The translations under genes were made by a program, and so were the position numbers. DNA of 64,000 bases from Acetobacter sp. (GTDB lineage Bacteria; Pseudomonadota; Alphaproteobacteria; Acetobacterales; Acetobacteraceae): contig JAFVHT010000034.1 of assembly GCA_017474285.1 (NCBI GenBank), positions 9,952-73,951 on the forward strand, given 5' to 3'. Under the pieces are notes generated by a model. The model was not told the origin of the DNA. It was given only the letters and a program-made list of their open reading frames with translations, and did no database searches. The stretch's first letter is position 1; each line of letters starts with the position of its first letter. This document shows, piece by piece, positions 2,399 through 13,246 of this stretch.

Positions 2399-3361
2399 TT
2401 GAAGAACTTAAAGGAAAGACCTATTCTTTCTTACGATGAACAGATCGAACATCTTAAAGAGAGAGGTATAACGTTCAATAAAAATTTTTCTGAAAATGAA
2501 GCCAAAGAATATCTTCGGTCTCACAATAATCTCTTTAGAGTAACATCGTATCGTGAAAACTTTAAGGACAGAAACCCAAATAATAAATCAAAAAAATATA
2601 ATGGACTTGATTTTTCTCATCTCGTTGACTTATCGCGAATTGATATGAGACTGCGAAGAATTATCTTTAATTTATCTTCAAATATAGAACATTATTCAAA
2701 ATTACAGCTTCTTAATTCAATAACTGAATCTTCAAACGAAAATAGAGATAGTCATAAAATTGTGAAAGACTTTATCAATTCTCTTGAAGATAGAGAAGCC
2801 AACAGATTACAGGGAGAAATAGAGAGAAACGCTAGGAATATTTATCTATCTGGGTTGTATAGAGAATATCATGAAAAATTTCCAATTTGGGCATTTCTTG
2901 AAATTATATCGTTCGGACAGTTTATCTACTTGTATAAGTTTTATACTAACAATTATGATTGTAAACTGAAAAAAGACGATTTTTATTTATTGGAAAAAGT
3001 CAAAAGGGCTAGAAACGCTGCGGCACATAATAATTGTTTTATAAATGACCTACACCCTGGTAAGAAACCATGTAAAGACGAAGAGGTTATGACAGCTCTT
3101 GCCAAAATAGGTATAAAAGAAGGTCAACGTCGTAAGAAAATGAGCAATGAAAGAATCGCTCAAATCATTACTTGCTTATATATGCATCAAAAAATTGTAA
3201 CCCATCATGAACATACAGAAATTCATTTACGTATATCTCGCAAATTACAGGCATTGAGCACGCGATTTTTTGAAAATTTCAAATATGAGTCCAATGATGT
3301 AATTCGAACCACATTTCATATGATGAAAGAAATTATTGACCATTGGTATACAATAACATAG
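2399..3361 (+). CDS. Abi_2 family (AbiD/AbiF-like) abortive-infection protein, HEPN-type
   Basis: 320 aa with a TTG start preceded by aaggaa. The N-terminus LSYDEQIEHLKERGI...SYRENF...DFSHLVDLSRIDMRLRRIIFNLSSNIEH follows the Abi_2 pattern. An RNAAAH (Rx4H HEPN) motif sits at nt 3011-3028. The gene is AT-rich relative to its neighbours. Confidence 0.8.
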   Translation: MKNLKERPILSYDEQIEHLKERGITFNKNFSENEAKEYLRSHNNLFRVTSYRENFKDRNPNNKSKKYNGLDFSHLVDLSRIDMRLRRIIFNLSSNIEHYSKLQLLNSITESSNENRDSHKIVKDFINSLEDREANRLQGEIERNARNIYLSGLYREYHEKFPIWAFLEIISFGQFIYLYKFYTNNYDCKLKKDDFYLLEKVKRARNAAAHNNCFINDLHPGKKPCKDEEVMTALAKIGIKEGQRRKKMSNERIAQIITCLYMHQKIVTHHEHTEIHLRISRKLQALSTRFFENFKYESNDVIRTTFHMMKEIIDHWYTIT

Positions 3362-3400
3362 TATGTTCTTAATAGGAGAGGATGCTACAGCATCCTTGCA

Positions 3401-3435
3401 GGGGCAGCATTCAATGAATGCTGCCCTTTGTTTTT
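3401..3435 (+). terminator. Rho-independent terminator of the Abi_2 gene
   Basis: A perfect 9-bp stem gggcagcat/atgctgccc (3402-3410 / 3418-3426) with a 7-nt loop, followed by tttgttttt. Confidence 0.7.
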
Positions 3436-3440
3436 ATATT

Positions 3441-3472
3441 AGAAAAATCACCTGTTGCAAAAAATGCAACAG
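3441..3472 (-). terminator. candidate terminator for the convergent minus-strand gene
   Basis: An 8-bp stem ctgttgca/tgcaacag with an A5 loop. On the minus strand it is followed by gtgatttttct. Confidence 0.4.
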
Positions 3473-3535
3473 TTGAAAGATGGCAGAAATCTGCGGTTTT
3501 TGGATATCCACAGAATCAGTGGATAGAGTTGTGAA

Positions 3536-4387
3536 TTAACGTCTTGGTCCCCTTGTTCTTTCTGGCTTATCTGGATTGTTTGGCTTAACAACAACAGAGC
3601 GATCTTCGTTTATTTGGAAAAGCAACAAAGATTGGTTATCGACATGGCGCACGCCAAGGAATATGACAGAACCGCCTTTTCCTGTGTAAACTTGGTGCGG
3701 GGGTATATTGATCCCTTCCATGCGTTTTCTTGAACGTTCTTGGCAATATTTGATAGCAGCCTCTTGTTCCTGTGTTGCTGCTTTTGGTGTTATTGGTTTT
3801 GTTGGTGTTGCTGTTGTGCCATTTCCACTCCGTCGCAATTCGTGAGCTCTGTCGGTTCTTTGGTTGTCCAAACGATGCCGCTCATAAGACGGCACCAGCA
3901 CTTCAGTTCGTCTGGCGTGGAAAACCAAAGTGCTGCGAGACAATGTTCGCAAGTCGTTGGCTTTTGTGGGCGATGTTTGGGGTCCAAAGCCTCCAAAGTT
4001 TTGCTGGAATGTGTCTTTTCTGATGATCCGTTGGAACTCTCTTGGGTCGTTTGTGTAGATGGGTCCTGTTCTTGTTGGCTCTCTTGGTGGTTCTCTGCCT
4101 TGGTCATCATTTGCGCCACGAGCGTGTTGGTTTCTTCTATGCGTGTTTTCCTTTCTGAGTGCGTCTAGGTTTTTGTCATCGAATTGTATATCAAGATTGA
4201 GCTTGCCAGCCAAAATAGCCGCACGCTTTTTGAACTCTTCTGATCCGTCTACATGAATAGTATTTGTGTTTTCTCTTTTGGCAGAAGCAAGCATTGCAAA
4301 GACAATCGCTGAATCTTCGACGTTGCTTTTAACAAAAAGCTCCTCTCTATCCCGCACAACGCCAGAAGACGTTTTGAAAACAACCAC
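3536..4387 (-). CDS. LPD7/KfrB-like plasmid-conjugation-associated protein, possibly a gene remnant
   Basis: 283 aa. The N-terminus FKTSSGVVRDREELFV...DSAIVFAMLASAKRENTNTIHVDGSEEFKKRAAILAGKLNLDIQFDD resembles the LPD7 domain of relaxase/polyvalent proteins. The C-terminus AAIKYCQERSRKRMEGINIPPHQVY..GSVIFLGVRHVDNQSLLLFQ resembles KfrB-type domains. The middle is low-complexity. The start is GTG with a weak RBS. Confidence 0.5.
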   Translation of the reverse strand: MVVFKTSSGVVRDREELFVKSNVEDSAIVFAMLASAKRENTNTIHVDGSEEFKKRAAILAGKLNLDIQFDDKNLDALRKENTHRRNQHARGANDDQGREPPREPTRTGPIYTNDPREFQRIIRKDTFQQNFGGFGPQTSPTKANDLRTLSRSTLVFHARRTEVLVPSYERHRLDNQRTDRAHELRRSGNGTTATPTKPITPKAATQEQEAAIKYCQERSRKRMEGINIPPHQVYTGKGGSVIFLGVRHVDNQSLLLFQINEDRSVVVKPNNPDKPERTRGPRR

Positions 4388-4529
4388 ACCTGTTTTCGTG
4401 ATATTGGTGTGGCATTTTTTAGTGCAAGATGTTCTATCTATCTATTGATAAGTAGTTGAAATTGATAAAGAGAAAGTGTATTTATTACAAATAAAAAGTA
4501 AGAATAGTCACCTCGCTTTAACTTTAGTG

Positions 4530-4730
4530 TCATGCTATCCAACCGTCTACATCTTCAAAGTCTTCATCCATATAGTCTTTCAAAGACAGATCTTTACTGT
4601 CAGCTTCTGCCGCAAGCAAGCATTGACGCTGGCATTCTTTGTCGAACTCTGCCTTACTTATAGACTTAATAGATGGTGTTTCATAGGGAACTTGAATATC
4701 TACGTGTTGATAAACAGGGATCACCGTCAT
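4530..4730 (-). CDS. small acidic hypothetical protein (66 aa)
   Basis: The ATG is preceded by aaagagg with 6 nt spacing. The C-terminus is acidic (DYMDEDFEDVDGWIA). The overlapping plus-strand ORF 4476..4736 looks like an antisense artefact. Confidence 0.45.
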   Translation of the reverse strand: MTVIPVYQHVDIQVPYETPSIKSISKAEFDKECQRQCLLAAEADSKDLSLKDYMDEDFEDVDGWIA

Positions 4731-5220
4731 GATTAACCTCTTTTATAAATGTCTTCTTAAGCCTCTCATGGGGTACATCGTTGAGAGGTGTGGGGATTAC
4801 TATCACTTTTATTTTATAGGTTTTGGCCTTAATATAACAACGTTAATCTTCAATTAGCTACCCGTATAAAGCGGGATGTTTATATATAGGCTTCTATATA
4901 AGTCTTGTTGGTGGTATTAACGTGATTGTGGAAGAAGAGTAGTCGTTTTTTTAACAATCTACAATCAAGCTATTATAGGAAAATTATCATGGGTAAAGAA
5001 ATCGACATCGACTTAGGTACAACAAATAATTGATTGCGTAAATACTAAAGATACAGATGCTTCGTCTGACGATAAGAAAAGCTGGGTGCGTCGTGCGTGA
5101 TAATTGCTGGCTCTCTACTTTGCTTCGATATTTGTGTAATATTTTGTATTTTATGGTTATTTATCATCATTCTTTGGTATTGAACGTTTATCGTAAAACG
5201 TAAGATTATGGATATAGCCC

Positions 5221-7566
5221 ATGTCTTCTGAAGAAATTATAGATCCTGTTGTTATAGATGAAACTGAGCAAGAGCGTACGTGGTTGCATTTTGTGGTGCC
5301 GCTTGTTCTTACGTGCTTGGCACTGGGGTTTATTGCGTGGGTAGGTATTAGCTCTTACAAAGCAACCAATGAAGGTGCGTTAAAACTGACGCGTGATTTA
5401 ATGGAGGCGTCTCAGCGTTATATTGGGCAGGAAGTGGGGGATTATATTATGCCCGTTTCTGCGGGGGATATGGTGGCGAGTAATATGTTGGCTTATATCC
5501 CACAGCAATTGCGGGATAAGGTTTTTTACTCGTATTGCACAACGATGTTGCAGAAAGTACCGCAACTTCAGTCCTTTTATTTAGCTAATGAGCAGGGTGA
5601 TTTTATACTTGTTACCCGTGCGCAACAGAAAAATATGTTTGACCATATCCAATTAGTGGTAAAGGGGGATCATCGATTTTTTCGTCATACATTATATGAC
5701 CTTCAAGGGAACAAAATTAAAGAATATGAACAAAGTGCTGGTCAGTATGATCCACGTAAGCGCCCGTGGTATAAAGATTCTGCAGGTGCGAAGGGGATAA
5801 AATGGGCAAACCCATTCTTTTTTCCAGCCGATAGACAGCTTGTTATGACAAGCTCTATTCGTTTTCATTCTGATGATGGACATACATTTGTTTTTGCTGC
5901 AAATATTTCACTCAATGAGTTGAGTGGCTATCTTGGCGATATTAAGATTGGGCATAATGGTAATGCTATGATCGTCGATAGCGAAGGGCGTATGATTGCA
6001 GCACGGGATATGTTGATTGTTCCACATCTTTTTTCGAGCAGATGGGCAGTAGGGCAAAAATTAACACCAGAAAGCAGATTACTTAGCCTGAATAATCATC
6101 CAATTTTTTCACTTGGATATGATCATTATCGTGTGATGGGGGCGGGGGCAGGTAATATTACATGGAAAGGTAAAACTTACATTGTTTTGTCTTCTAAGTT
6201 AGAACATTCGGCAGGTTGGGTTTTACTGATTATTGTTCCAGAAAAAGATTTTTCGAGTTTTGCCCGTCAAAGTCGTTGGCAAAGTCTTAAATTTGTTGGG
6301 ATTATTATCGTTTTTTCTACTCTATTAGGTGGGTTGTTTATTCGGCAGCTACGGCGTGCAGAGCGTGGTCTTCGTGTTGTGGCGGAACAGAAAACTCGAA
6401 TGCTGAGCGAAAGTACAGCTGTATGGCATATTGCTGTAGCGCCTAATGTCTTTAACCCTACTGTAGAGCCTACGGTGCTAACAGAACAATTAGTTCATGT
6501 GACACAGGCACGCCGTGCAAGCTTATGGCGGTTTTTACATGATGGCACTATGATGATTTGTGAAGATTCCTATGATGGTGCACAAAATACACATACAGGG
6601 GGCTTTGAAGTAGGACGTTCTGAACTTGAACAATTTTTTTCTGCTGTAGAAGAAGGGAATGTTATAGAAATTTCACAAGCGGCATCAGATGAGCGTACAA
6701 TAGCTTTTGATCGTTTGGTTATGCGTGAAATTGGTACCAGTGCCTTATCAATTTACCCTATTGTGAGTCCTCAAAGGGTAGAAGGGGTATTGGTATTGGA
6801 AGATGCCACGCCAGAACCACATCAGCAATATTTTATGGCTTTGGTGACAGCTATTGCAAGTATACGGTTTTTGGCACAAAAGCAAAGTGAGGCACAATTT
6901 TCCTTGCAAGATAAAGGGACAAAAAAAGAAAACGGAAAAGAGGGGAATACTCTTTCATCTCTACAATTTGATAACCTTTTGATGCAAGCGTCAGAACTTG
7001 ATTCTGTAAAAGGGACAAAGGTTTATGACTCTGTTGCCGTTCTTGTTATTACATTTTCTGATCCAGTTGTAGAAAATACACAAGATATTATGGATCTTTT
7101 AGAATTGATTAACCGTTTGGCAGTTGATGTTAAAACAATTGCTGAGGAAAAACAGCTTTTTGCTGTTGAATTAGCAGGGCATAGAATGATCTGTATGGCG
7201 GGGTGTACAGCACAACCTGATCTTGGTGCTATTGTACGTGTTGCCGATGCTGCACTGAAAATGCGAGAAGCGTTTATTCGTGCCTTATCCGCTGCTGATT
7301 TAGAGCCAGTTTTTGCAATGGGTATTGATTATGGTCCTGCTTTTGGGGGGAGGTTAGGACCAGAAGGTCATGTTTTTAATTTGTGGGGGCAAACAGTTTC
7401 TTTGGCGGAACTTATGGCAGAAAGTACCTCTGATCCTGGTATTATTCAAGTAACAGATCGGGTTTATACAGTATTGCGTGACCAGTATCTTTTTCGTAGT
7501 CGTGGTACATTTTTTGCTCCTTACCTTGGTATTGGGCGTGCTTATACGTTGGCGACCCGTCGATGA
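5221..7566 (+). CDS. membrane receptor: TM - Cache-like periplasmic domain - TM - GAF-like - class III cyclase-homology domain (apparently degenerate)
   Basis: 781 aa. There are hydrophobic segments near aa 20-45 and 350-375. The Cache hallmark YDPRKRPWY is present. A GAF-like stretch reads ARRASLWRF...SDERT...GVLVLED. The C-terminal 170 aa align by eye to the adenylate/guanylate cyclase catalytic domain. Confidence 0.8.
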   Translation: MSSEEIIDPVVIDETEQERTWLHFVVPLVLTCLALGFIAWVGISSYKATNEGALKLTRDLMEASQRYIGQEVGDYIMPVSAGDMVASNMLAYIPQQLRDKVFYSYCTTMLQKVPQLQSFYLANEQGDFILVTRAQQKNMFDHIQLVVKGDHRFFRHTLYDLQGNKIKEYEQSAGQYDPRKRPWYKDSAGAKGIKWANPFFFPADRQLVMTSSIRFHSDDGHTFVFAANISLNELSGYLGDIKIGHNGNAMIVDSEGRMIAARDMLIVPHLFSSRWAVGQKLTPESRLLSLNNHPIFSLGYDHYRVMGAGAGNITWKGKTYIVLSSKLEHSAGWVLLIIVPEKDFSSFARQSRWQSLKFVGIIIVFSTLLGGLFIRQLRRAERGLRVVAEQKTRMLSESTAVWHIAVAPNVFNPTVEPTVLTEQLVHVTQARRASLWRFLHDGTMMICEDSYDGAQNTHTGGFEVGRSELEQFFSAVEEGNVIEISQAASDERTIAFDRLVMREIGTSALSIYPIVSPQRVEGVLVLEDATPEPHQQYFMALVTAIASIRFLAQKQSEAQFSLQDKGTKKENGKEGNTLSSLQFDNLLMQASELDSVKGTKVYDSVAVLVITFSDPVVENTQDIMDLLELINRLAVDVKTIAEEKQLFAVELAGHRMICMAGCTAQPDLGAIVRVADAALKMREAFIRALSAADLEPVFAMGIDYGPAFGGRLGPEGHVFNLWGQTVSLAELMAESTSDPGIIQVTDRVYTVLRDQYLFRSRGTFFAPYLGIGRAYTLATRR

Positions 7567-8465
7567 CTGATTTTTCTGTTCAGCAAGGACAAGATCCAGA
7601 AGAGTTATCAGAAAATGATTCTAAACATGCGTTAGATCTATCTCAACGTAAGGAGATAGGTTTGTCTGATTTGTTGCGTTGGATACGGCGTAAACTTGCA
7701 TGGACAGGACAAACATTCCGTCGGCATATATGGTTTTTCCTTATTATGTTGGGGGGGGGCTGGGGTGTTATTTTTGAGAGTTTACGGGTACGTTCGTGGC
7801 GAAGAACTGTTCGTTACGAATTTGTAAGTACAACGAATAGCATTATTCGTAGAGGGTTGTTTTCCACCATGTTTACAGGGGTGTTAACAGGGATTGCTGC
7901 TGTATCACAGGTGATTTACTGGTTGGGGCTTACAGGGCTTGCAACAATGACGGGGTCTATTTTAATCAATATCGTGGTGCGTGAAATTGCACCTATTTTA
8001 GTTGGGGTATTGCTCCTTGGTCGTAATGGTATGTTATCAACCACGGAATTAGGCTTACTCGCTATGAACGGAGAAGTTCGTTCTATGCAGGCTATGGGTA
8101 TTGATCCTTTTTTATTGCTTGTTATGCCACGTACTCTTGCTTTTACCGTAGGCGGTTTTACATTAGGAATTTTATTTTCTTTTGCCGCTCTTATTACAGG
8201 TTATATCATAAGCCGTGTTTCTGGTGTTATTACGGCATCTGTTTGGACATTTTTTAATAATGTGACATCAGCGATCTCTCCTTCGGATTATGTGGCTATT
8301 CCCCTAAAATTTATCGCTGTTGGATTTGTTGTAGGACTTGGTGCGTGTTTAACGGGATTAACAGCGACAAATCAAGATACATTACGTTCGATATTACCGC
8401 GAAGCTTTTCACGGGGCATGCTTATTGTCATGGTTGTGAGTGTTGTGTTTAGTTTGGATCTATAA
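7563..8465 (+). CDS. MlaE-like ABC transporter permease
   Basis: 300 aa and polytopic. REIAPILVGVLLLGRNG...EL..M...GE..A....GIDP is typical of MlaE/YrbE permeases. The start overlaps the upstream stop (ATGA). Confidence 0.8.
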   Translation: MTDFSVQQGQDPEELSENDSKHALDLSQRKEIGLSDLLRWIRRKLAWTGQTFRRHIWFFLIMLGGGWGVIFESLRVRSWRRTVRYEFVSTTNSIIRRGLFSTMFTGVLTGIAAVSQVIYWLGLTGLATMTGSILINIVVREIAPILVGVLLLGRNGMLSTTELGLLAMNGEVRSMQAMGIDPFLLLVMPRTLAFTVGGFTLGILFSFAALITGYIISRVSGVITASVWTFFNNVTSAISPSDYVAIPLKFIAVGFVVGLGACLTGLTATNQDTLRSILPRSFSRGMLIVMVVSVVFSLDL

Positions 8466-8467
8466 TA

Positions 8468-9172
8468 ATGAAAACATGTGTTACAGGTCCTTTGCTAGAA
8501 TTGAACAAAGCTGTACCCTCGTTTGAAGAGAGTGGTTTACCACCTGTACCATTTAATATGCGTTTGATGCCTGGAGATTGTGTCTTTGTTGATGTCTACG
8601 ATATAAGCCGTGCTACAACGTTTGCTGATGTTTGTAGTGGTTTAGTTCCTCTAGAATCAGGTAATGTGCAGTTTATGGGGTTAGATTGGTGTCGTTTGAA
8701 AGAGAAAGAAATTAACAGCTTACGTGGGCGTATCGGACGTATTACGAAGCGACGAAGTTGGCCAGATTTTATCCCTGTTCATATGGCAATTATGTTACAG
8801 CAATTACACCATACGACAGTGTCACAAGAGACTTTATTGTTTGAGGCATCTGTGTTAGCAGAGCAGTTTGGCTTACCAGGCTTACCTACGGTTAATCCTA
8901 ATATGATGTCTATGATGGATTTATGTCGCGCAAGTTGTGTACGTGCTTTGCTTGGAAAACCGCAGTTATTGTTGTTGGAAGAACCTATGGAAGGAGCTCC
9001 AAAAGAATTGATAGATGCTTTCTTAAGAGCTGTTACACGTGCAAGAGATTATGGAGCAGGTGTTGTTTGGTTAGCGCGTGGTGGTAGTACTATGCATCGG
9101 TATTATCGACAGGGTGTAACGTCGGCTTTGCGGCTTACGGATAATGGACTCGTAACAGTGCGGGTGGGATGA
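8468..9172 (+). CDS. ABC ATPase-like protein with degenerate nucleotide-binding motifs (MlaF position)
   Basis: 234 aa with ABC-like overall spacing. The Walker A region reads DVYDISRAT, the signature MSMMD, Walker B LLLLEEP, and there is no H-loop His. It begins 2 nt after the permease stop. Confidence 0.65.
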   Translation: MKTCVTGPLLELNKAVPSFEESGLPPVPFNMRLMPGDCVFVDVYDISRATTFADVCSGLVPLESGNVQFMGLDWCRLKEKEINSLRGRIGRITKRRSWPDFIPVHMAIMLQQLHHTTVSQETLLFEASVLAEQFGLPGLPTVNPNMMSMMDLCRASCVRALLGKPQLLLLEEPMEGAPKELIDAFLRAVTRARDYGAGVVWLARGGSTMHRYYRQGVTSALRLTDNGLVTVRVG

Positions 9173-10101
9173 TGTTCCAGTTTCGTTTGAAACAAAAAGT
9201 TAAACCTCTCATTGCTCTACGTTATGTAGATGAATGGGTTGGATTTCTTGTTTTTCTCAGTATAGCAATTTGTATTGGTGCTGTTATAGAAGCAGGTGTT
9301 TTACGCGATTGGTTAACACCGCCTGCACGCTTACGTGTTATTCTCCCATCTTCTGGTGTTGGCGGCTTGACTGTGGGCGGAGACGTCCAGTTTATGGGGG
9401 CGCATGTAGGGAATATTCGTTCTATTAAGATCAACCCGTCGGGAAGTATGTATGCGATCGTAGATCTAGATCCGCAAACAAAGCCTTTTGTACGGCGTGA
9501 TAGTATTGCACTTATTCGTCGTCAGTTTATTGTTGCAGGGGCTTCTTATCTTGAACTCATTCGTGGACATGGTAAACCTATGAATTGGAGTTATGCCGTG
9601 ATTACAGCAAAGCAAGCGCCAGATCCGACAAAAGAAATTATAGCAACTTTAGAGAGTATTAAAGCAGAAGTTATGCCTGTGTTGGCGAGTGCGCGCCATA
9701 TGATGGCACAGCTCGACAGTACGATTACAAATATGCATGAAGGGAAGGGGACCGTAGGGCAACTGATGACGAGCGATAAATTGATTCGTCAGGCAGAACA
9801 AGTTATGGCTTCTCTTAATGACGTGATCAATCGTATTAAACCTATAGAGGAACAGGCTTCTGGTGTTATGGAGAATGTTAAAGCCGTTTCTGGTGATGTT
9901 AGAAAGACGACCCCACATTTGCCAAAAATTGCTCATAATGTTGAGGTGAGTACTGGGGATCTTCCCGCTCTTTTAACACAGGCCCAGGTGAGTTTATATG
10001 AGTTGCAAAAACTCATTGCCCAACTGAGAGGTCTATGGTTTTTAGGAGGGCAAAAAAGTGTGTCACATAATCGGCTTAGTCCTGCTGAGATTCAACCATG
10101 A
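9169..10101 (+). CDS. MlaD/MCE-domain protein with coiled-coil C-terminal extension
   Basis: 310 aa with an N-terminal TM helix. An MCE-like segment reads LRVILPSSGVGGLTVGGDVQFMGAHVGNIRSIKINPSGSMYAIVDLD. The start overlaps the upstream stop (ATGA). Confidence 0.75.
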   Translation: MMFQFRLKQKVKPLIALRYVDEWVGFLVFLSIAICIGAVIEAGVLRDWLTPPARLRVILPSSGVGGLTVGGDVQFMGAHVGNIRSIKINPSGSMYAIVDLDPQTKPFVRRDSIALIRRQFIVAGASYLELIRGHGKPMNWSYAVITAKQAPDPTKEIIATLESIKAEVMPVLASARHMMAQLDSTITNMHEGKGTVGQLMTSDKLIRQAEQVMASLNDVINRIKPIEEQASGVMENVKAVSGDVRKTTPHLPKIAHNVEVSTGDLPALLTQAQVSLYELQKLIAQLRGLWFLGGQKSVSHNRLSPAEIQP

Positions 10102-11000
10102 GAGTGACATTTCGTAATTCTTATTTTCCAGTTGTTGTAGTGCTTTTAGCGCTTTCAGCATGTGGTGAGAAGAAAGCAAGTCCTACTCTGTACAAAGGAC
10201 TTATGTGGGAACAATTTATAACAGCGGGGCACGATTCTTTTATGTTGGGGCGTTATGAAACGGCACAAACACAATATCGTAAAGCCTTTAATTTGGCACT
10301 TCTGCATGATAGTGCTTCTGGTTTGGAAGAAGCAGGTTATAATTTAGCTGTGACTCAGCTAGCAGAAAATCGACCACAACAGGCATTGAAAACAATTCAA
10401 ACGACTCGTAAAGCCGTTCTTTTACGCAAAAATAAACCGCTTCCTTATCTGCTTCTTGTTGAAGCAGCGGCTTATGATCGTCTTGGCTATAATGAAAAAG
10501 CAGAACATTGCGCAGAAGATCTTTTGAAAATACAGGATATAGATATAGCTGCGCGAGCTGCACTTATTTTGGGGGTTTCTGCAGATCAGCTTGGGGACGA
10601 GTTTCGATTAAAACGAGCAATAGCACGATTGGATCAACTGAAAAAACCATTGTCTCCGACACATTTAGCGGATTGGAATGAATTGCGGGCTCGCTTATTG
10701 AAAAAAGATAATCCTGCACAAGCTATTGTTTTTGCCGAACAAGCGGCACAACTTCGTCAACAGGCAGGAGCTTATCGCGATATGGTACGCGCTCTTATCC
10801 TTGAAGCAAGAATAACTGAAATGATGGGATTACACGATAAAGCCCATCGTTTATGGTTACGAGCAGCACAGAGCGCTTGTGTGATATCTGGTAAATTAGA
10901 GACTATTAACAAGTTAGAAACGATGGATACGGCAACATTAATCCGTATAGCATCATCAATAACGGAACCAGAGTTATCTCAGACGCAGGCTTTGCACTAG
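10098..11000 (+). CDS. TPR-like lipoprotein
   Basis: 300 aa. It has a signal peptide with lipobox LLALSAC. The helical-repeat composition (YETAQTQYRKAFNLAL...) is TPR-like. The start overlaps the upstream stop (ATGA). Confidence 0.6.
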   Translation: MRVTFRNSYFPVVVVLLALSACGEKKASPTLYKGLMWEQFITAGHDSFMLGRYETAQTQYRKAFNLALLHDSASGLEEAGYNLAVTQLAENRPQQALKTIQTTRKAVLLRKNKPLPYLLLVEAAAYDRLGYNEKAEHCAEDLLKIQDIDIAARAALILGVSADQLGDEFRLKRAIARLDQLKKPLSPTHLADWNELRARLLKKDNPAQAIVFAEQAAQLRQQAGAYRDMVRALILEARITEMMGLHDKAHRLWLRAAQSACVISGKLETINKLETMDTATLIRIASSITEPELSQTQALH

Positions 11001-11053
11001 TTATTCAGTCTTGTGTAAATTAGCTTTATTGCTTTGAAGAGAATCTAAAAGCA

Positions 11054-13246
11054 TTAAAGTGCTTTAAAGGGTTGAGAAGTATTAAGGAAGGCTGCGTTGG
11101 CATCAAGTTCAGAAGAAATTAGCATGAGATAAGTAATAGCACGGGTGAGTTCAATACGTGTCGTAATATTGAATTCACTAGCTTCCATAGTGCGTAATGT
11201 TTTCATCGCTATGCGTGTTGTGCGTGCTGTGCGCCCATAACGCCCTGTAAATTGGCTCATACGGTGCATAACAATTTCAAGTTTTTTCCGTGCTTCAGGG
11301 GGAAGTTGATTACGTTGAAGTAGCAGTTGTAATCGAATAAGATCGATGCCAATAGTCATGCTCGCGAATGCCCCTTGTAGATATTGTTCGATTGTAGCCG
11401 AAGGTGTTGCACCTGCGTGGCGTAAAAGGCGTGAAAGACGATCAATATTTGTTGTAACCCAATTTTGCATAGAGGATGTTTGATTATCGAGGGCTAAATT
11501 GCGGAGATCTTTTAAAATAATTTTCCGCATATAACGGCGCTCATCTACATTACTAAAAGGAAGTACTAAGCTGAAACATAATGTAGCAAAACCACATCCT
11601 AACACTGTTGCAGAGGTTGAGTTAAACCAAACGATTTCGTCTGTACGTCCTAGGTTAACAGGATGGAGTACGGCGGGAAGTACAAGTGTAAAAGCGACTC
11701 CTTGAATGGCTGTAGACGGGTTACGCATCGCCAGCCCACCAGCAATAAAGGGTACTGCAAGTGTTGCTGCAAAAGTTTCATAAACAGGTTGTGTTGGAAG
11801 GGCTAAAAATGTTAGAAAAAACGAAACAAGCGCAGCCCATAAAGCGCCAATAAAAAATTGCCATGTTACAAGGACAGGATTTTCTCTTGTACCGAATAGC
11901 CCACAGACTAAAGTAGCATAAGTAACAAAAGTTAATCCCTGAGGCCATGCCGTACATTCGTAAATTAAACCACCACCTATAGTGGTTGTAAAAGCGCGAA
12001 TACCATTATAAAAAGCTTCTTTTTTATCAAGATGTCCTTGTATACGGAAACGGAAACGATCTTTAAGGCTAGCATGTTGGGTCGCATCATATTCTCGAAG
12101 AGCATGTTCTAATTCACCGAGTATTTCATTTAGTGAATTATGGAGAATACGGCTATCGAGCAGAGCATCGGCGTTTGTAGTAGGATTAGGAAGCGTATTC
12201 ATTTCCTGTGTGAGTATGTTTACAATTTGTTGACGGCACTCTGCACGGGCTAAGCGCAGATCATGAAGTAATTCATGTACGGGCGTATCTGCATGAAGGC
12301 GTGCGCGTAAAGTTGTTAAAAAATCACTTACAATACTAACTGTTTTACGAAAAAGCGGTTGATCTGTTTGAATAGTTCGAAGGCGTGTGATCATACCTAA
12401 TCCATGCGCTAAAATAACGGAAATTGTTGCAAGAGCAGCGCGTGCGTGCTCTCCTTCGTGAGCGCGAGGTCCCATTTCATTTTCGAGAAACTCAATTTGG
12501 TTATTAGCTGCTAAAAGCTGTTCAAATATGGCACGGGACCGAATAAAAGCTTCATTATCGCCAGAAATGAGACCTGCCATATTTTCAGAGACATCACTAA
12601 GAATAACACGTAATCTATTACGTATATTACGACGGGCTGTACTCGCCATATTGGGGTAAAATAGATTGGAGATAACACTTTCACATACGACACCGAGTGC
12701 TATATAAGTCATACGTGACATAGAAATAAAGAAAATGTTATCAGGGTGAGCAATAGCTGGCGCAGCAATAATTGTTGCGGTGTAACCTGCAAGAACGAGG
12801 GCATAGGATCGGAAATTGCGTGTTAATACGGCTAATGTACAACAAATAGCCATCCAAATCCCTAGACACGGAAAAAAGAGCCACGGTTGTTGATAAAAAG
12901 CAGAAACCAAGGTGAATCCCATAATTGTTCCTAATAGGGTACCGACAAGACGCCACTTAGATTTTGATAGACTTTCTCCACGCGTACCTTGAGCAACAAT
13001 CCAAACACACATCGCTGCCCATGCGGGATCATCAAGTTCTAACCACATGGCAATGATTACCGCGAGTATTGACGCTGTAGTAGCACAAAACGCAAAACGC
13101 AAGGCAGGCATTGTGGGGAAAAATAGCCATGCGAGTGGTATGTTTTTCCTAGTATTAGGGTTTTGTAATTGTTTGACAATGTGGTGGAGACCAAGTCTCG
13201 TAAAGAGAGAACGTGTTAGTGAGACAATAGAATCAGACATAGACAT
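11054..13246 (-). CDS. FUSC family (fusaric acid resistance / AaeB-like) membrane protein
   Basis: 730 aa. Two blocks of multiple TM helices are separated by a long helical cytoplasmic region. This architecture and composition are typical of the FUSC/ArAE family. Confidence 0.7.
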   Translation of the reverse strand: MSMSDSIVSLTRSLFTRLGLHHIVKQLQNPNTRKNIPLAWLFFPTMPALRFAFCATTASILAVIIAMWLELDDPAWAAMCVWIVAQGTRGESLSKSKWRLVGTLLGTIMGFTLVSAFYQQPWLFFPCLGIWMAICCTLAVLTRNFRSYALVLAGYTATIIAAPAIAHPDNIFFISMSRMTYIALGVVCESVISNLFYPNMASTARRNIRNRLRVILSDVSENMAGLISGDNEAFIRSRAIFEQLLAANNQIEFLENEMGPRAHEGEHARAALATISVILAHGLGMITRLRTIQTDQPLFRKTVSIVSDFLTTLRARLHADTPVHELLHDLRLARAECRQQIVNILTQEMNTLPNPTTNADALLDSRILHNSLNEILGELEHALREYDATQHASLKDRFRFRIQGHLDKKEAFYNGIRAFTTTIGGGLIYECTAWPQGLTFVTYATLVCGLFGTRENPVLVTWQFFIGALWAALVSFFLTFLALPTQPVYETFAATLAVPFIAGGLAMRNPSTAIQGVAFTLVLPAVLHPVNLGRTDEIVWFNSTSATVLGCGFATLCFSLVLPFSNVDERRYMRKIILKDLRNLALDNQTSSMQNWVTTNIDRLSRLLRHAGATPSATIEQYLQGAFASMTIGIDLIRLQLLLQRNQLPPEARKKLEIVMHRMSQFTGRYGRTARTTRIAMKTLRTMEASEFNITTRIELTRAITYLMLISSELDANAAFLNTSQPFKAL

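Follow-up and report, generated by a model that had tools for sequence, protein, structure and literature searches.

Five genes at positions 5221-11000 of a 64,000-nucleotide stretch of Acetobacter sp. DNA (assembly GCA_017474285.1, contig JAFVHT010000034.1, positions 9,952 to 73,951 of the forward strand; the whole stretch is called the window below) form one co-translated cassette in which a membrane receptor is encoded together with a transport machine of the MCE type. In order, they encode a receptor with dCache_1, GAF and class III cyclase-homology domains, an MlaE-family permease, a homologue of the nucleotide-binding domains (NBDs) of ATP-binding cassette (ABC) ATPases that has no P-loop (referred to here as the pseudo-NBD), an MCE/MlaD-family protein and a tetratricopeptide repeat (TPR) lipoprotein. 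Our preferred reading, to which we assign a probability of roughly 0.45, is that the five genes encode one envelope complex, a receptor-controlled MCE machine that would not itself hydrolyse ATP and whose mechanism we can sketch only tentatively. The first-pass annotation of this DNA had pictured a ligand-sensing pseudoenzyme scaffold wired to an MCE-type envelope machine, and the analysis supports that picture, with the function still read from sequence.

The cassette is apparently an undescribed but widespread variant of MCE systems, with unexplained energy and signal logic. A search of the full-text literature, which covered few subscription journals and leaves a prior description possible, returned no account of the cassette, of MlaE, MlaD or MCE proteins combined with a cyclase/Cache receptor, or of an MCE-associated NBD without a P-loop; this agrees with the earlier suggestion that the architecture had not been characterised. 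MCE systems are central to the building and upkeep of the outer membrane, and how they are energised and in which direction they work are still debated. The cassette offers a natural experiment on what a scaffold of MlaE, NBD and MCE proteins can do without ATP hydrolysis. If our reading is true, it would also provide a bacterial example of two pseudoenzymes retained as parts of a signal relay, and a new kind of output for the dCache_1AA sensor family. Acetobacter and Komagataeibacter are among the hosts that can be cultured and are genetically tractable, which makes the question directly testable.

A co-translated five-gene unit

The ORF (open reading frame) table and the sequence place all five genes on the forward strand without a break: the receptor gene at 5221-7566 (781 aa), the permease gene at 7563-8465 (300 aa), the pseudo-NBD gene at 8468-9172 (234 aa), the MCE/MlaD-family gene at 9169-10101 (310 aa) and the TPR lipoprotein gene at 10098-11000 (300 aa). 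Three of the four junctions are ATGA overlaps. The first lies at 7563-7566, where the start of mlaE overlaps the stop codon of the receptor gene, and the others join the pseudo-NBD gene to mce (9169-9172) and mce to the TPR gene (10098-10101). At the remaining junction (8463-8470), the TAA of mlaE ends at 8465 and is separated by a 2-nt gap, TA, from the ATG that begins at 8468. These coordinates and junctions match exactly those of the first-pass annotation, which had argued from them for a single co-translated unit.

That proposal is borne out. The junctions leave no intergenic room for internal promoters within the unit, and a consensus scan for such promoters returned 16 promoter-like sites when 16.9 were expected, which is the chance rate. 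The few terminator-like hairpins found by the consensus scan all lie inside genes, and none splits the unit at a gene boundary. Scanned against Rfam with a permissive threshold, positions 4000-11500 gave no RNA element either within the unit or ahead of it, and the 64-kb window holds no second copy of any of the five components. The junctions, their conservation across the family, described next, and the lack of an internal promoter excess show that the five genes are one co-translated unit.

The order of the genes is the same wherever it can be read. It is identical in 22 of 22 Acetobacter genomes recovered via the cyclase gene, and the cassette also occurs in Dongia soli (~29-42% identity per protein), in two complete or near-complete assemblies and in other contigs from metagenome-assembled genomes (MAGs) and soil. 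A pattern scan of metagenomes yielded 429 confirmed stretches, 80 of which were fetched, and in 108 loci all ORFs were scored with profile hidden Markov models (HMMs) built from the orthologues. The receptor and mlaE genes are present in all 68 loci whose sequence extends 3.4 kb or more upstream of the NBD gene, with the receptor gene first in each, and the mce and TPR genes are present in all 71 loci that have at least 1.9 kb downstream of it, with the TPR gene always fifth. The synteny of cyclase, mlaE, NBD, mce and TPR genes that had been predicted is therefore without exception in Acetobacter and in distant relatives. Junction geometry is kept as well, the counts being upper estimates: the receptor and mlaE genes overlap by 4 nt in 73 of 85 loci, mlaE and the NBD gene are separated by 0-5 nt (mostly 1-4) in 89 of 99, the NBD gene and mce overlap by 1 or 4 nt in 91 of 103, and mce and the TPR gene overlap by 4 nt in 74 of 81. 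Since the same order and junction geometry recur in about 100 related loci, the arrangement is not due to chance. No sixth gene is conserved upstream or downstream across the family, the flanking genes varying by lineage. The named hosts are all Alphaproteobacteria and comprise Acetobacteraceae genera, Dongia and one Rhodospirillales MAG. The pseudo-NBD of the window shares 100% identity with a protein labelled 'MAG: Acetobacter sp.'.

All five genes are under purifying selection, and hence functional rather than decaying. The ratio of nonsynonymous to synonymous substitution rates (dN/dS) is 0.02-0.20 over the five genes in three Acetobacter pairs, within which the MlaE permease and the MCE domain range from 0.02 to 0.13. 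It reaches 0.35 in one metagenome pair, where the gene starts are less certain.

The five proteins and their two degenerate nucleotide modules

Profile searches assign the five ORFs to the families that had been proposed for them. The third protein, described beforehand as ABC-ATPase-like, is so at the level of its predicted fold. It aligns with FtsE and other NBDs along its whole length, although its match to ABC_tran (PF00005), at 20.7 bits, lies under the Pfam cutoff of 25. The AlphaFold2 (AF2) model has a mean predicted local distance difference test (pLDDT) score of 92.5 and a predicted template modelling (TM) score of 0.90. Foldseek aligns the model with YbbA, FtsE, LolD, MacB, BceA and MlaF at TM scores of 0.73-0.82 and with MceG at 0.75, and the top PDB profile match of the family is BceA (E 2.6e-15).

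Despite this fold, the protein lacks, on alignment to FtsE, the motifs that define an ABC ATPase. The Walker A motif, canonically GxSGxGKST, reads VYDISRATT (8594-8620, + strand), the Q-loop Gln is replaced by Lys, the signature LSGGQ by MSMMD (8906-8920, +) and the H-loop His by Arg; Walker B, hhhhDE, reads LLLLEEP (8966-8986, +), so that Asp-Glu has become Glu-Glu. The losses are common to the 120 homologues listed and to an alignment of 30 sequences, and a Walker A P-loop is present in none of the 150 best representatives of the family and in none of the 120 homologues listed. The family itself is large: an exhaustive profile search of 1.84 billion representatives yielded no fewer than 356 clusters (50% identity) at E<=1e-30. 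Its consensus has LSxxD at the signature, no Q-loop Gln, LLLLE[SD]P and T[RS]. The model and the alignments together show a predicted NBD fold that has been retained while the ABC motifs were lost family-wide, which is not local decay.

The family has a conservation pattern of its own. Its motifs are FADLCSG, ALRGRIGR, QLHHT (8801-8815, + strand, in the window), FGLPGLP (8867-8887, +) and RAxCVRAFLGxPxLLLLE. In window numbering, the invariant residues are Cys56, Trp74, Arg86-Gly87, Ile89-Gly90, Trp98, His115, Asp151 and Arg159, and Arg88 and His114 are nearly invariant. The Cys/His/His/Asp set among them could form a new ligand or metal site in place of the ATP site.

The pseudo-NBD could not be placed in one NBD subfamily, the sequence and fold matches being spread evenly over BceA, FtsE, MacB, LolD, YbbA and MlaF. 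On these sequence and model comparisons, a derivation from MlaF is not demonstrable.

The receptor has the domain make-up proposed for it, in that dCache_1, GAF and Guanylate_cyc all reach their Pfam cutoffs. Two hydrophobic, transmembrane segments (aa 20-46 and 354-377) bracket a periplasmic dCache_1 domain (45.4 bits, cutoff 45) and are followed by a GAF domain (aa ~420-547; 36.3 bits, cutoff 22.4), a poorly conserved linker and the class III cyclase-homology domain (aa ~610-781). The last of these occupies positions 7048-7563 (+ strand), matches Guanylate_cyc (PF00211) at 57.7 bits against a cutoff of 21.9 and finds AC8 and mycobacterial Cya in the PDB at E ~1e-12.

The domain was aligned to mycobacterial Cya (5o5k) and AC8, MAFFT alignments with the reference were added, and the six canonical catalytic positions of class III cyclases, which are well established, were placed on the alignment to 5o5k. 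Of these six residues the window protein keeps one, D614, which is the first metal Asp. In the other five places, the second metal Asp is replaced by H654, the substrate Lys by E650 and the substrate Asp by Q724, the transition-state Asn by S727 and the transition-state Arg by L731. The same five replacements (E, H, Q, S and L) are found in 23 of 23 Acetobacter sequences. Across the family, the first metal Asp is present in 74 of 79 cyclase domains, and the second metal site is His in 23/23 Acetobacter sequences and 37/56 others, with Asp in 2/56 of the latter. The 56 domains from outside Acetobacter usually keep the substrate residues (Lys in 49, Asp/Glu in 51). The transition-state Asn occurs in none of them, its position being taken by Arg in 38, and the canonical transition-state Arg is kept in 5. 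On the aligned residues, then, the window domain has neither the second metal Asp, nor the substrate pair, nor the transition-state residues of a class III cyclase; the domain is non-canonical across the family as a whole and most degenerate in the Acetobacter clade.

The substituted Arg (38/56; for example in loci L023, L024 and L027) precedes the lost canonical Arg by four residues, or one helical turn, and could represent a positional shift that retains the triphosphate contact in members from outside Acetobacter.

Both nucleotide-using modules had been described as seemingly catalytically dead. At the level of motifs this view is supported, family-wide for the NBD homologue; the cyclase domain keeps its first metal Asp, and relatives outside Acetobacter keep more.

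Among solved structures, the periplasmic sensor comes nearest to the amino-acid chemoreceptor PctA. In the amino-acid motif of dCache_1 domains (AA_motif; PctA numbering), Y121, R126 and W128 bind the ligand's carboxyl group, Y144 and D173 bind its amino group, and the D173N exchange abolishes ligand binding in PctA (PMC8915833). Aligned to PctA, the YDPRKRPWY segment of the window receptor (5746-5772, + strand; Y176, R181, W183 and Y184) is the carboxyl-binding half of this motif, with Y121/R126/W128 present as Y176/R181/W183. The amino-binding half is altered, with F199 for Y144 and N228 for D173, and Asn stands at the D173 position in 23 of 23 Acetobacter receptors. Among 40 receptors from outside Acetobacter, counted after five sequences without a match to the motif pattern had been omitted from the AA_motif counts, R126 and W128 are invariant, position 121 is Y or F, Y144 is present in 40 and D173 in 36, and the motif is complete in 36. 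The receptor family thus looks, from these residues, like an ancestral amino-acid sensor whose ligand changed in Acetobacter, and the window receptor departs from a dCache_1AA amino-acid sensor at its predicted amino-binding residues.

The permease matches MlaE (PF02405; 121.8 bits, aa 88-297) and TIGR00056, as had been expected. An N-terminal extension of about 60 residues had also been described; it amounts to ~40 residues relative to the TIGR00056 model and is largely specific to the Acetobacter clade, in which the protein has 297-306 aa, whereas that of distant relatives has 226-292 aa. The MCE protein has a single N-terminal transmembrane anchor (aa 19-47) and an MCE domain at aa 64-133 that matches PF02470 (MlaD) at 43.6 bits against a cutoff of 25.1, and from aa 28 to aa 287 it fits TIGR00996, the model for the mycobacterial Mce family. 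Here too the family assignment of the first-pass annotation stood. The single long coiled-coil tail that went with it did not: the tail, of ~170 aa, is helical but is interrupted by Gly and Pro into several segments.

The fifth protein is a TPR lipoprotein, as had been suggested, with the lipobox LSAC at Cys22. A Gly follows at +2, from which a location in the outer membrane is presumed. Its Pfam TPR matches are weak; the AF2 model (pLDDT 88.8) is an all-helical TPR solenoid. A fold search returned only generic TPR proteins at TM scores of ~0.5 and no functional lead, and a homologue search gave only 13 proteins, all labelled 'hypothetical'. A lipobox-like motif is present in 61 of 74 orthologues.

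Two loci show anomalies in this gene. In Acetobacter okinawensis JCM 25146 (L020, 14868-15802) it is broken into two ORFs, and in one MAG (L026, 8738-9501) it is fragmentary and the MCE gene is longer, at 381 aa. Either errors of assembly or a local loss of the fifth gene may lie behind these cases.

Proposed mechanism and alternatives

The complex that we propose would have as its core an MlaE permease dimer, an NBD-fold cytoplasmic subunit unable to bind or hydrolyse ATP in the manner of ABC proteins, and the membrane-anchored MCE protein, whose helical tail would reach towards the TPR lipoprotein. The first gene would supply a dimeric receptor that has a dCache_1 pocket in the periplasm, a GAF domain in the cytoplasm and a cyclase-homology domain devoid of its catalytic set. 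Since neither nucleotide-dependent module would supply enzymatic output or energy, the GAF/pseudo-cyclase dimer is proposed to act as an allosteric adaptor on the pseudo-NBD/MlaE unit; and because the receptor has no enzymatic output and there is no other conserved partner gene, the co-translated machine would be its most economical target. Whether an MCE conduit not driven by ATP is open or closed would then depend on a periplasmic ligand, perhaps together with a GAF ligand, and this conduit would carry a hydrophobic envelope molecule. The outcome would be gating or regulation rather than active pumping.

A more specific form of this proposal, which we regard as doubtful, is that ligand binding in place of ATP hydrolysis operates the MCE/MlaE conduit through an inactive cyclase dimer docked on a dimer of the P-loop-less NBD, and in this way gates the movement of lipids across the envelope. 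If so, the cassette would represent a novel class of envelope machine. Its ligand pocket is ancestrally of the amino-acid type, and one could imagine as the signal an amino-acid-bearing lipid head group, such as that of phosphatidylserine or an ornithine lipid; this is pure speculation.

Comparison with known systems shows what is shared and what is new. As in Mla-type systems, a permease of the MlaE family, a cytoplasmic subunit with the NBD fold and a membrane-anchored protein with a single MCE domain are encoded together, and the pseudo-NBD model superposes on MlaF with TM scores of 0.73-0.79. Unlike them, the cassette has an NBD without Walker A, the Q-loop Gln, the signature, the Walker B Asp and the H-loop His; MlaB (STAS), MlaC and MlaA are absent from the five proteins and from the products of the flanking genes; the MCE protein carries its ~170-aa helical tail; and the TPR lipoprotein and the Cache/GAF/cyclase-homology receptor are additions. 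Given the absence of MlaB, MlaC and MlaA, the long MCE tail and the lipoprotein, we liken the cassette to bridge-type MCE systems and not to the shuttle-type Mla pathway.

LinKLMN of Alphaproteobacteria consists of a permease, an ATPase, a periplasmic protein and a lipoprotein (PMC4289293). The cassette shares this composition of permease, NBD, MCE protein and lipoprotein, and the Joint Genome Institute (JGI) names of family members carry the label 'phospholipid/cholesterol/gamma-HCH transport system'. With mycobacterial Mce1 and Mce4 it shares the fit of its MCE protein to the Mce family model, and MceG of Mce1 is among the fold matches of the pseudo-NBD. LinKLMN, Mce1/Mce4 and PqiABC differ from the cassette in that they have or borrow an active ATPase, whereas its own NBD is without the ATPase motifs, and in that none is known to be headed by a receptor gene. 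The lipoprotein, a TPR solenoid, is also distinct from the auxiliary lipoproteins of the LinN/PqiC type, and no such Pfam match appeared.

On the signalling side, the order of sensor and output domains is that of dCache_1AA-class III cyclase fusions, such as the guanylate/adenylate cyclase of Legionella pneumophila that has been shown to bind amino acids, and most of the receptor family carries the AA_motif. The differences are that the catalytic set of the cassette cyclase is incomplete throughout the family and almost gone in Acetobacter, that the Acetobacter clade carries the equivalent of D173N and the window receptor also that of Y144F, and that translation of the receptor is coupled to that of an MCE machine. 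BceAB-BceS likewise unites a transporter-type module and a membrane signalling protein in one unit. BceAB, however, needs ATP hydrolysis and signals to a histidine kinase with enzymatic output, while in the cassette neither partner has a predicted enzymatic activity and the permease family is a different one.

Several points weigh against a receptor-controlled machine that does not hydrolyse ATP. That the five proteins would assemble, which way information would flow, that ATP would not be used and what the cargo would be are all inferred, as is the putative contact between the receptor and the pseudo-NBD/MlaE unit. Loss of motifs is no proof that nucleotide binding is absent, and the invariant residues of the pseudo-NBD could form a different ligand site. 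The Asp, Lys and Asp/Glu retained in cyclase domains from outside Acetobacter make residual activity or nucleotide binding possible there. Start codons in the GC-rich metagenome loci were chosen by a script that favoured short gaps, so that the junction counts may be inflated. Finally, our view of the genome spans 64 kb, and the permease could draw its energy from a canonical MlaF/Mkl ATPase encoded elsewhere.

This last point can be developed into an explanation of its own, in which the cassette is an ATP-driven MCE transporter powered by such an ATPase and the pseudo-NBD is a regulatory or scaffolding subunit, either in a mixed dimer or in the manner of MlaB. There is a precedent in Mkl orthologues encoded elsewhere, which have been proposed as the cognate ATPase of mycobacterial mce operons, these having none of their own alongside (PMC1810536), and the data, which cover only 64 kb of the genome, are compatible with a second ATPase; those 64 kb contain no paralogue. 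We nevertheless find this unlikely. The pseudo-NBD has a full NBD fold and stands in the operon position of the cognate ATPase, and would itself be expected to fill the coupling site of MlaE; a mixed dimer would have one composite site without Walker A and another without the signature motif; and the tight translational coupling suggests that the pseudo-NBD is a stoichiometric partner. We would also bet against information flowing the other way, with the MCE/TPR bridge serving as a mechanical or lipid-state sensor or as a tether, without transport, and the receptor scaffold relaying that state, along with its own ligand input, to a cytoplasmic partner. Transporter-like sensors that serve signalling proteins are known, BceA of the BceAB-BceS complex being the best PDB profile match of the pseudo-NBD family, and the loss of the ATPase motifs fits a role outside transport. 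Such a relay, however, would lack both a recognisable enzymatic or DNA-binding output in the receptor and a conserved sixth gene as its partner, and the MlaE permease and MCE domain are well conserved, as expected for a conduit still in use.

A receptor that works as a non-canonical nucleotide cyclase, its product possibly sensed by its own GAF domain and the MCE genes merely co-regulated, is improbable. The cyclase domain lies well above its Pfam cutoff, its first metal Asp is kept nearly throughout, and members from outside Acetobacter usually retain the substrate Lys and Asp/Glu, with an Arg close to the missing one. Set against this, all 23 Acetobacter sequences have lost the canonical residue at five of the six catalytic positions although the domain is conserved, and outside the genus the second metal Asp and the transition-state Asn are found in 2/56 and 0/56 sequences. 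On reading its sequence, the GAF domain lacks an obvious cyclic nucleotide motif of the NKFDE type, and a gene order that never varies, with codons that overlap, points to something beyond co-regulation. Hardly credible at all is the idea that the operon is decaying, that its genes are neighbours by chance or that they form a mobile defence cassette. It could appeal to the lost catalytic motifs, to the AbiD-like gene and TraI-like fragment in a low-GC insertion just upstream, and to the cyclases of Pycsar and CBASS, but it is already contradicted by the purifying selection on all five genes and by an order that is invariant in ~100 loci. Scanned against PADLOC, the five proteins returned nothing beyond a marginal match of the MCE tail to LmuB (E 0.0055). 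The low-GC insertion is absent from other Acetobacter genomes, and the chromosomal position beside ppx is identical in 21 of 22 Acetobacter loci; the remaining one, L001, ends ~440 bp upstream of the receptor gene, which is too short to tell.

Genomic surroundings

In the window, ppx (454-1956) is separated from the cassette by a stretch of low GC content (2399-4387; 0.32-0.34 versus ~0.41-0.45 around it). It contains an AbiD/Abi_2 gene (2399-3361, + strand), the one real PADLOC match and unrelated to the cassette, and a fragmentary gene encoding TraI-like C-terminal and LPD7 domains (3536-4387, - strand). Of the 22 other Acetobacter loci, 21 have ppx just ~190-360 bp upstream of the receptor gene, and the stretch therefore looks like a mobile-element insertion.

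Two small reading frames lie in the spacer between the insertion and the cassette. On the minus strand, positions 4530-4730 encode a very acidic protein of 66 aa (…DYMDEDFEDVDGWIA). On the plus strand, positions 4989-5033 hold a frame of 14 codons, MGKEIDIDLGTTNN followed by a stop, which resembles the N-terminus of DnaK/Hsp70-family proteins and may be a gene remnant or a chance frame. The distant relative L025 has a gene for a 413-aa HSP70-family protein upstream of its cassette.

Directly after the cassette, and convergent with it, is a FUSC-family gene (fusaric acid resistance/AaeB-like; 11054-13246, - strand). A FUSC gene is found downstream of the cassette at a variable distance in most Acetobacter loci, and not outside the genus. 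It is followed in the window, on the minus strand and up to 17835, by cytochrome c maturation genes for a CcmI-like TPR protein, CcmH, a thioredoxin-like protein and CcmF. In the soil-metagenome relative L027, the gene just downstream of the cassette (10212-12182, - strand) is likewise convergent and encodes a second protein of 656 aa that combines a cyclase-homology domain with TPR repeats.

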